Positions 15,588 through 17,923 of a stretch of 64,000 nt of DNA are shown here, one piece after another (within the stretch, counting starts at the first letter, position 1; every line of letters begins with the position of its first letter). The stretch lies in NCBI GenBank assembly GCA_964016885.1, contig OZ024751.1, positions 52,328,001-52,392,000 on the forward strand, written 5' to 3'. Both the position numbers and the translations under genes were made by a program. This DNA is from Eledone cirrhosa (Eukaryota). Under the pieces are notes generated by a model. The model worked only from the letters and a program-made list of their open reading frames with translations, made no database searches and had not been told where the DNA came from.

Positions 15588-15681
15588 GTTTACTGATGAG
15601 GACAGTGTAGCAATTTACTGATTAACCATTATAATTATGGTAATTAGTACTTTTCTTCTTGTCTGAAACTGTGGTATAAAC
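15588..15681 (+). ncRNA. Minimal type I hammerhead ribozyme motif
   Basis: Stem I GTTTA/TAAAC; CTGATGA (15593-15599); stem II GGACA...TGTCT; GAAAC-TGTG-GTA with predicted cleavage after 15676. Confidence 0.7.
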
Positions 15682-15888
15682 ATATAATTGGATTTACTAA
15701 TTATAATGTAAGGAAAATTGCATTTGCTATTAAATGTATTTTTGCTTGCATTTCTTATGCTTTGTTTTGCTATCAGTATTATTGTATCTTAATAATATTG
15801 TGTAAATTATACTTTGAAATTTTGGTTTTTATCCCTAATGTTCATTGAGCTTTTTATGCTATAATGAGATCGATATAACTTATTTCAA

Positions 15889-16314
15889 TCTCTCTCTCTC
15901 TCTCTCTCTCTCTCTCTCTCTCTCTCTCTCTCTCTCTCTCTCTCTTCTCTCTCTCTCTCTCTCTCTCTCTCTCTCTCTCTCTCTCTCTCTCTCTCTCTCA
16001 TCTCTCTCTCTCTCTCTCTCTCTCTCTCTCTCTCTCTCTCTCTCTCCTCTCTCTCTCTCTCTCTCTCTCTCTCTCTCTCTCTCTCTCTCTCTCTCTCTCT
16101 CTCTCTCTCTCTCTCTCTCTCTCTCTCTCTCTCTCTCTCTCTCTCTCTCTCTCTCCTCTCTCTCTCTCTCTCTCTCTCTCTCTCTCTCTCTCTCTCTCTC
16201 TCTCTCTCTCTCTCTCTCTCTCTCTCTCTCTCTCTCTCTCTCTCTCTCTCTCTCTCTCTCTCTCTCTCTCTCTCTCTCTCTCTCTCTCTCTCTCTCTCTC
16301 TCTCTCTCTCTCTC
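15889..16314 (+). repeat. (CT)n microsatellite, ~425 bp
   Basis: Almost uninterrupted CT dinucleotide run. Confidence 0.98.
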
Positions 16315-16444
16315 GTAACACGTTATCGCTATAGGTAATCAGTTAGAGGTTGTGATAGTTTTAACGTACGCTTTTGTTTAACTCAACAAGATGTATCCAT
16401 AGTTAAGCAGCGTGTTTGCGGTAATTCTTATGCAGGTTATCTTT

Positions 16445-16555
16445 GTATTCTGATGTGTTGATCAGAGGCAAATAATGTAATGGAGATCGAGTGACGCAAC
16501 TTCAAGCGATTAGCGACCTCTAGACTCACCTGATCAATGAAACAATTGTTAATAC
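16445..16555 (+). ncRNA. Minimal type I hammerhead ribozyme motif (A9 variant)
   Basis: Stem I GTATT/AATAC; CTGATGT (canonical is CTGATGA); 9-bp stem II GTTGATCAG/CTGATCAAT; GAAAC-AATT-GTT with palindromic CAATTG; AATAAA just downstream. Confidence 0.65.
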
Positions 16556-16622
16556 CTGAAATAAAGTCCCTTGTTGTACAGCCAACCATGTTGCTCTTCA
16601 TTCTTTCACTATATATATATAT

Positions 16623-16866
16623 ATATCAATGATATTAATAAATGGAAACAATATTTATAAAACCATATTTATTTTATTATATATATTTCGAGGGAACCAA
16701 AAATTTTGGTACTCTTGAAATATATATAATAAAATAAATATGGTTTTATAAATATTGTTTCCATTTATTAATATCATTGATATTATACTCCAGAAAACTG
16801 TAGAGTGCTTTGAATCTGTTATAAATAAATTTGTTGAATAATCAACAAATTAAATATCTCTTTGCT
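16623..16866. repeat. ~80-bp-arm palindrome plus tail between (TA)n tracts
   Basis: 16623-16783: ATATCAATGATATTAATAAATGGAAAC... is the reverse complement of ...GTTTCCATTTATTAATATCATTGATAT. Confidence 0.85.
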
Positions 16867-16907
16867 TATATATATATATATATATATATATATATATATA
16901 TATATAT

Positions 16908-17462
16908 ATAAAATATTAAACAAATAATGAATAAACAATTCCTTATATTAAACAAAAAAAGTTCATTATTTAACGATCGTTTCTAGGATATATATGTGTT
17001 AGAATTGGTATGCATATTCAACAGATCTATCAGATCTATGTACAAAATTATACAAAATTATACAAATTATCAAGATTAAATATACATACCAAACACATAT
17101 ATACGCCGTCTTCAGAAATAATGATTATTTCTGAAGACGGCGTATATATGTGTTTGGTATGTATATTTAATCTTGATAATTTGTATAATTTTGTATAATT
17201 TTGTACATAGATCTGTTGAATATGCATACCAATTCTAACACATATATATCCTAGAAACGATCGTTAAATAATGAACTTTTTTTGTTTAATATAAGGAATT
17301 GTTTATTCATTATTTGTTTAATATTTTATCTTGACTCTGTATACCGTTTATCTTTCACCGAAAGTGGTTTTTCATTACATCTCTTCTTTCCATGATATCC
17401 GGAATACATTGAGTTCTCCATACGGATTGGACACTACCGTAAACTCTTGGTAGATTTATCTA
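16908..17462. mobile_element. Penelope-like terminal-repeat fragment with ~210-bp fold-back, between (TA)n tracts
   Basis: Arms 16908-17122 and 17124-17329 are reverse complements (1-nt loop, 9-bp duplication in the left arm). Contains a hammerhead motif. An unpaired tail runs to (TA)n at ~17463. Confidence 0.7.
17124..17272 (+). ncRNA. Minimal type I hammerhead ribozyme motif in the right arm of a palindrome (mirror copy on - strand)
   Basis: Stem I ATTATTT/AAATAAT; CTGAAGA (17131-17137); long stem II TATATATGTGTT...AACACATATATA with imperfect base; GAAAC-GATC-GTT with palindromic CGATCG. Confidence 0.65.
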
Positions 17463-17604
17463 CATATATATATATATATATATATCTGTCTGTATATCTA
17501 TCTATCTATCTATCTATCTATCTATCTATCTATCTCTATATATATATATCTATATATATATCTTGTACTGTCATTGGTCATGTATATTTATTGTTGCATT
17601 ACAG

Positions 17605-17706
17605 AGGTTGGATGGCGGGCCTTGGTTGTCCCTGCAAATCATCCTGTATCAGAATATCAGTTTGATGTTCTTATTGGTGCTGATGGCAAGAGAAACACAT
17701 TGGAAG
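17605..17706 (+). CDS. MICAL: MICAL coding exon 4 (DG motif)
   Basis: (K)[33 protein letters not shown]; ttacag / gtaaga; phase 1-1. Confidence 0.95.
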
Positions 17707-17872
17707 GTAAGAGCTGCTTATATATATATAAAGGGTATATATGAAAGCATATACTTTATGTTTACATACAATAAACATCTGGTAGTCTCACTATCAAAGG
17801 AAAATATTTTTTCGTAATAAAAAAAATTATTTTTCTCTCATTTCTTCTGTGAGAATGTCAGTACCAGTCGAG

Positions 17873-17923
17873 AATGTCAGGCTGTGCTGTTTCAAGATTC
17901 ATTAATCTTTCATCAGTGACATT
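17873..17923 (-). ncRNA. Degenerate hammerhead ribozyme motif
   Basis: Minus strand AATGTCA-CTGATGA-AAGATT-aatg-AATCTT-GAAAC-agcaca-GCC-TGACATT. Stem I (7 bp) and stem II (6 bp) are perfect, but the cleavage triplet is GCC rather than NUH. Confidence 0.55.

Follow-up and report, generated by a model that had tools for sequence, protein, structure and literature searches.

Hammerhead-bearing ends of Penelope-like and likely retrozyme-like repeats clustered around a MICAL exon in Eledone cirrhosa

Hammerhead motifs around the fourth coding exon of MICAL

We analysed a 64,000-nt stretch of the genome of the octopus Eledone cirrhosa (assembly GCA_964016885.1, contig OZ024751.1, positions 52,328,001 to 52,392,000 of the forward strand; hereafter the window, numbered from its first letter), in which an initial annotation had noted four hammerhead ribozyme motifs around exon 4 of a MICAL gene. 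That setting is correct: the host gene matches MICAL3 at E 3.4e-33 and has coding exons near 11970, 13020, 13600 and 17605. Motifs 1–3 all lie within the third intron of the coding region, sense to the pre-mRNA as had been claimed, and motif 4 lies antisense in the fourth intron. In a contig whose letters are identical, the exon at 17605 is spliced to the two exons that follow it.

15588 to 15681, plus strand: hammerhead 1, core at 15593, GUA triplet, predicted cleavage after 15676, loop III TGTG (decayed)
16445 to 16555, plus strand: hammerhead 2, core at 16450 with U at position 9, loop AATT, GUU triplet, predicted cleavage after 16550
17124 to 17272, plus strand: hammerhead 3, core at 17131, 116-nt helix II domain, loop GATC, GUU triplet, predicted cleavage after 17265
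17605 to 17706, plus strand: fourth coding exon of MICAL, the host-gene context
17873 to 17924, minus strand: hammerhead 4, core at 17916, triplet GCC instead of GTC

A structural descriptor run over the window found motifs 1–3 as complete type I hammerheads, and the four motifs were confirmed where the initial annotation had put them, its start coordinates being those of the helix I arms. The new RNA 5' ends that it had predicted (15677, 16551 and 17266) coincide with the recomputed cleavage sites. Motifs 1 and 3 have all the elements of a minimal type I hammerhead (CUGANGA and GAAA cores, helices I and II, and an NUH triplet), motif 3 with a C-A mismatch at the base of helix II, and the helix II domains of motifs 1, 2 and 3 are 65, 82 and 116 nt long. 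Palindromic loops III are present in motifs 2 and 3 and in most copies of the family of motif 1, and have decayed in the window copies of motif 1 and of motif 4, whose loop III has 6 nt. The triplet of motif 4 is mutated, as had been reported, since most members of its family have GTC. The inventory of four was right as far as it went and incomplete: it overlooked a mirror copy of motif 3 (17115, minus strand, inside a palindrome at 16908–17329), a further hammerhead family at 16623–16866 (F6) and a mirror pair at 29215–29400, which belongs to family F5 (5-nt loop III). Descriptors missed motif 4, F5 and F6, so that hammerhead counts obtained with them are underestimates.

The motifs are real hammerhead motifs, each carried by a separate dispersed repeat family (F1–F4 for motifs 1–4), and the families are as unrelated to one another as the initial annotation had held, with a best cross-family E of 0.15, which is no significant similarity. 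That they are chance matches in AT-rich sequence could be argued from three results: an Rfam hammerhead search, which the annotation had proposed, returned nothing, whether at the gathering score in the window or with E as high as 10 in 14000–19500; motifs 2 and 4 fold no better than shuffles (z −0.8 and −1.5); and the F1 stems, with 84.5% of cells paired, show no excess covariation (27–328 of 500 shuffles reach the observed values), so that the expected stem covariation did not appear there. Lack of covariation in F1 would, however, be expected if its copies decayed after insertion. F3 is too young for such a comparison, and in F6 paired differences between subfamilies were noted by eye only. 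Against chance stands the frequency of the motifs, which as anticipated exceeds that in shuffled sequence: 4 descriptor matches in the window compared with a mean of 0.017 and a maximum of 1 in 60 window shuffles, and 4 in 15400–18100 compared with 0 in 200 local shuffles. The F3 cores are nearly invariant among matches (100/101 and 111/112), different families keep the same core with differently paired stems, and F3 and F2 are placed where the hammerheads of Penelope-like elements (PLEs) are known to sit. We therefore give chance practically no weight.

Repeat families carrying the motifs

Each family was searched for in 3.0 Gb of genome (1,796 contigs), which gave 70 candidates for F1, 2,855 for F2, 630 for F3 and 857 for F4, with 40 scored per family. 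The pieces present around exon 4 are as follows; pLTR stands for pseudo-long terminal repeat.

15284 to 15345, minus strand: short inverted piece of the F1 3' region, an inverted self-match with approximate boundaries
15346 to 15885, plus strand: near-complete F1 monomer, a non-coding unit of 541–569 nt, likely retrozyme-like, old
16316 to 16437, minus strand: inverted fragment of the F2 long-end tail
16438 to 16609, plus strand: F2 3' pLTR stub with the short end, followed by (TA)n; Hydra-like PLE
16623 to 16866, no strand assigned: F6 head-to-head stub, a fifth hammerhead family, cut within helix II and lacking the 5' core
16908 to 17122, minus strand: F3 left arm with the short end (207-nt type), bearing the mirror hammerhead
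17123 to 17462, plus strand: F3 right arm with the long end (340 nt including a 133-nt tail); pLTR with (TA)n flanks
17720 to 17990, minus strand: partial F4 monomer, a non-coding unit of 348–387 nt, likely retrozyme-like, old, in the next intron

F3 is the most informative of these. An exact 24-mer has 3,896 genome matches (reversed control 0), and the window copy is 98–100% identical to the 39 next best scored copies. Head-to-head pairs occupy 19 of 28 distinct best-match loci, and all 19 join a 207-nt to a 340-nt arm; a further 13 mirror pairs, from 30 loci picked by the long end, are also short plus long. Longer copies have about 600 nt of upstream sequence in common, and a search with this flank led to inverted F3 pairs 5–11 kb apart and to open reading frames (ORFs) of one protein family in 7 of 12 extended loci. 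At locus L272 the 5' pLTR extends beyond the long end and leads into an intact 813-aa ORF, with a long 3' region rich in microsatellites and another pLTR after it; this partial tandem of pLTR, ORF and pLTR, with the hammerhead in the pLTR, recurs at L269, and L264 holds a second intact ORF that is 99.4% identical. Sharing 95.4% identity with the L272 pLTR, the window copy thus comes from a sister subfamily.

The F3 protein carries RWR, DKT, YRDD, CxCX5C, IVY...YIG, CxxC and CxH motifs and resembles, by eye, the Hydra alignment printed in the available part of the supplement to PMC8557442. Pfam had no match for the Hydra-like proteins at E 0.1, while it detected Neptune-like ones, and the reverse transcriptase (RT) and GIY-YIG domains are recognised from their motifs. 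On this sequence evidence, F3 is the pLTR of an apparently young and active PLE of the Hydra clade. The 3' region of the element is rich in microsatellites, and about 3 kb of it (L272:1700–4800) contains internal (TA)n tracts, which may be targets of the element itself.

The ORF link came through the upstream flank; a pattern search for F3 copies continuing past the long end found only (CA)- or (TA)-flanked ends. We rejected a link to a Neptune-like PLE ORF beside one F3 copy (L157), where about 330 nt of (TA)n intervene and the neighbouring element has its own hammerhead. Among 10,596 GIY-YIG candidates genome-wide, the sampled ORFs (L121–L170) belong to Neptune-like PLEs (RT and GIY-YIG) with their own hammerheads, one of which has a G15.2-C16.2 pair.

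F2 has a similar association. Its exact 27-mer has 1,311 genome matches (reversed control 0), and most copies are 93–97% identical over the hammerhead stub. A search with the F2 upstream flank gave 30 loci, and 21 of these contain the C-terminal end of a Hydra-like ORF, five of them being near-identical neighbours; continuous DNA from the ORF end to F2 is common to 4 of 8 extended loci, the hammerhead lying about 650 nt after the ORF end. A Hydra-like ORF at L275 is not continuous with F2 and was excluded from this count. The ORF pieces are 25–58% identical to the F3 protein, and all those in the copies examined are broken or partial, with no intact F2 ORF. By these sequence comparisons F2 is the 3' end of a second Hydra-like PLE family. 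Of the first 100 matches listed, 86 have the GTT triplet (counted by hand); U at position 9 occurs in 28 of 55. Other copies of F6 bear a full hammerhead, with the core upstream in 25 of 33 matches.

F1 and F4 are older, with other copies 74–92% and 75–85% identical, respectively. Sequence 3' of the hammerhead recurs upstream within the same locus in 3 of 29 F1 and 4 of 30 F4 loci, giving periods of 541–569 nt and 348–387 nt (three loci each). Among about 30 best-matching loci for each family, the longest tandems reach 1.2–1.4 units and no dimer with two hammerheads was found, no genome-wide array search having been made. No ORF link emerged in 14 extended loci, and we rejected as links the ORF fragments near F1 (3 of 7) and F4 (1 of 7), which vary in side and orientation. 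By analogy with known systems, F1 and F4 are likely to be retrozyme-like non-autonomous units. They may instead be the truncated ends of PLEs that are autonomous, the apparent unit length being an effect of partial tandems: both have inverted tail pieces resembling PLE stubs, and the ORF fragments near F1 are Hydra-like. We think this unlikely, because the repeat period is nearly constant between loci, and because 4 of 37 background samples contain Hydra-like fragments as well.

Comparison with published systems draws on the parts of the cited sources that were available to us. F3 resembles the endonuclease-bearing (EN+) PLEs of the Hydra clade, among them Hydra-1_Obim of Octopus bimaculoides (PMC8557442), in its single ORF with RT plus an EN of GIY-YIG type at the C-terminus, in its DKT, CxCX5C, CxxC and CxH motifs, in its (TA)n target and 3' hammerhead, and in that U is frequent at the cleavage site and the basal pair of helix II is often non-canonical. 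It differs from that clade (PMC8557442) in having RWR at the site that matches the RWK motif, a 3' region of about 3.7 kb (published families are mostly below 3 kb overall), a 116-nt helix II domain, a 4-nt palindromic loop III and a 133-nt tail, and its hammerhead is unlike the sequence listed there for Hydra-1_Obim. With the minimal hammerheads of PLE pLTRs (PMC4209133) the hammerheads here share a short helix III with a palindromic loop, thousands of solo copies, opposite-strand pairs 100–700 bp apart and many unrelated families per genome; they differ in the helix II domains of F1–F3, which measure 65–116 nt, in having no Rfam match, and in the U15.2-A16.2 pair of F6. The F3 insertions share with inverted-pLTR insertions (PMC3846280; PMC8557442; PMC11167929) the head-to-head arms, a junction palindrome, an extension on one arm and two 3' ends, but have a tail of 133 rather than 30–40 nt and a mirror point concentrated at the first base of helix I. 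F1 and F4 resemble animal non-LTR retrozymes (PMC7229834; bioRxiv 10.64898/2026.07.22.740005) in being non-coding, AT-rich and hammerhead-bearing, a few hundred bases in length, and present both as copies that exceed one unit and as many scattered monomers; they differ in that the copies are old and decayed and a full two-hammerhead dimer was not seen. Octopus goes unmentioned in the available text of PMC7229834.

The suggestion that these families may be uncharacterised in the lineage is only partly right, a Hydra-clade PLE with a hammerhead, one that differs from those found here, being already listed for Octopus bimaculoides in the available part of PMC8557442. PLE hammerheads, Hydra PLEs in Octopus, inverted pLTRs and one-sided tails have all been published; the families themselves look new by sequence. 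We found no report of them, or of a fixed 5' end at helix I, in a literature search that did not cover subscription papers, Repbase, Dfam or preprint supplements. Hammerheads with helix II domains of 65–116 nt escape Rfam, and counts for cephalopods may be low.

Origin of the cluster and its bearing on MICAL

We consider it highly likely that the cluster arose when hammerhead-bearing repeat ends inserted five times independently in and next to microsatellites of two MICAL introns, two of the ends coming from Hydra-type PLEs and two likely from retrozyme-like units, and that they are likely inert passengers. The accumulation of independent PLE or retrozyme-like families, as the initial annotation had proposed, is borne out by the finding of each motif in its own dispersed family and with the ties of F3 and F2 to PLE ORFs; the window itself contains no PLE ORF fragments. 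F2, F6 and F3 adjoin one another, with nothing but (TA)n in between. A PLE protein with RT and GIY-YIG endonuclease would be likely to nick (TA)n DNA, and the element RNA would be copied from one of two internal start sites 3' of the hammerhead, yielding a short or a long 3' end. Copying would often halt near the hammerhead and leave stubs of 170–340 nt, often as mirror pairs. Each insertion would keep (TA)n flanks and therefore probably offer the next target. We infer both the priming at the target and the order of arrival, and F1 and F4 would have been mobilised in trans.

For background we took 37 evenly placed 10-kb samples (370 kb). These hold 4 events of F1–F5, 3 of them of F5, and F6 occurs in 7 of the 37 samples; descriptor matches numbered 19, in 4 samples (15 in one tandem array), compared with 0 in 12 shuffles. 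The tandem array (L320, G000:C28:60000001-60010000) repeats about every 422 nt and contains 15 intact hammerheads within its 10 kb, as a typical retrozyme-like satellite would, and its hammerhead family also occurs twice in L161.

The initial annotation further raised the cutting of the pre-mRNA, or the release of small or circular RNAs, by motifs within intron 3. We find no support for this: the three sense motifs come from different families, one copy of each, and differ in loop III, motif 1 has decayed and motif 3 is predicted to be sequestered. In F3, transcription reaches the antisense arm before the sense arm, and the two are predicted to pair into a hairpin of 205 bp and −302 kcal/mol (fold z = −45), in which motif 3 would be locked. 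The modelled penalty for folding the hammerhead in context is 161 kcal/mol for motif 3, 8.7 for motif 1 and 4.4 for motif 2. The predicted dimer helix of motif 1 weakens from −14.1 to −1.6 kcal/mol after the loss of the palindrome, probably by CpG decay. Motif 2 is by these models the best candidate for cleavage, yet has no cognate partner in the transcript. In the available parts of the sources, single minimal PLE hammerheads are described as inactive (PMC4209133), and that of an anole PLE as needing protein, being dispensable for insertion and giving no RNA-seq ends (PMC11167929); U at the cleavage site is frequent in Hydra hammerheads (PMC8557442). Cleavage of the MICAL pre-mRNA is, on these predictions, unlikely.

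A stronger version, in which the host keeps the cluster so that sense hammerheads cut the pre-mRNA and tune MICAL output or release small or circular RNAs, could appeal to the three sense motifs in one intron, to motif 2 with its intact helices and small penalty, to a local motif density above background, and to the conserved intronic hammerheads of amniotes mentioned in the available text of PMC7229834. It would have to accommodate a motif 3 that is 99–100% identical to dispersed copies and therefore recent, as well as predicted to be sequestered, a decayed motif 1, an antisense and mutated motif 4, the lack of a cognate dimer partner in cis where loops differ between families, and the inactivity or protein dependence of single hammerheads noted above. 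We hold it to be very improbable; regulation of MICAL by ribozymes would be surprising and has little support.

The locus could also matter through the F3 hairpin itself, which ends about 275 nt upstream of exon 4 and might be edited from adenosine to inosine (A-to-I) or diced, with an effect on splicing. Its arms are 96–100% complementary, a second palindrome of 80 bp adjoins it, and A-to-I editing is extensive in coleoid cephalopods. Such hairpins are nevertheless a by-product of insertion in 19 of the 28 F3 loci, and editing would therefore not imply function; we regard this reading as improbable.

Several points weigh against a cluster of inert passengers. Five events in 2.7 kb are far denser than the sampled background of about 3 per 100 kb, and a second family lies near family copies only about three times as often as background (12 of 116 anchored loci compared with 4 events over the same length, three of the loci being duplicates of each other and F6 being left out). 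The hotspot would then have to reflect repeated use of one (TA)n tract together with our choice of dense windows. F1 and F4 lack a tie to an ORF, so that a PLE origin for them would hold by analogy only. Motif 2 keeps all its helices, its GUU triplet and U9 are found at the level of the family and its modelled penalty is small, and it could still undergo some cleavage in trans or with the help of protein. The energies are model predictions, and the compared contig stretch excludes intron 3 and so gives no direct view of splicing across motifs 1–3.

Elsewhere in the window, a (CT)n tract of about 425 nt (15889–16314) separates F1 from F2, and a very long GC-rich tandem array with many overlapping repetitive open frames occupies about 37500–63600. 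Identical tRNA-like matches at 4240–4297 and 23189–23246, on opposite strands, are probably heads of short interspersed nuclear elements (SINEs).

The fixed 5' end of F3 copies

In 1,083 matches a non-parental base directly precedes the first base of helix I, a count whose pattern omits some copies and includes sister families, while in 1,978 the upstream flank of F3 is retained. Since the stubs extend across the cleavage site, their template was uncut. As a tentative proposal, which we rate as rather less likely than not, the stubs may be copies complete to the 5' end of an uncleaved transcript that starts at base 1 of helix I, with a dimeric PLE complex priming both strands (at +207 and +340) and joining the cDNA ends head to head. 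Internal initiation and two-strand priming by a dimer have been reported in vitro (PMC11167929, available part). The same 5' end could instead arise from stalling of the polymerase at the 10-bp helix I, from an endonuclease cut at ATT in the pLTR, or from self-priming on an antisense template, as proposed in the available part of PMC3846280.

A cap-derived G at the F3 5' end is only a hint, since the best-match loci in which it seemed strong had been chosen with a G-bearing query. In an unbiased listing the base before the breakpoint was G in 43 of 100, A in 33 and T in 24 (counted by hand, C being excluded by the pattern), and for many of the preceding Gs the mirror arm serves as template.

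A tRNA-like SINE abuts, with its 3' end, base 1 of helix I of F3 or sister families in all 8 loci that were selected for this junction (L335–L342); it is truncated differently at the 5' end from locus to locus, and some of the loci show a duplicated target. The junction may be due either to a common ATT microhomology or to a preferred nick site. The same SINE occurs in the window near 14230–14337 and 14514–14651.

The fixed 5' end and the strict pairing of short with long arms would matter more if they reflect the mechanism of PLE insertion, for which self-priming on an antisense template (PMC3846280) and two-strand priming with internal initiation (PMC11167929) have been put forward. If the proposal is true, F3 would provide a natural read-out of PLE insertion at high copy number, with the ribozyme left uncut in the template, and a single active family would keep planting perfect 205-bp hairpins, potential substrates for editing, in octopus introns. 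With intact ORFs and thousands of near-identical products, F3 makes the question of how these elements insert directly testable.

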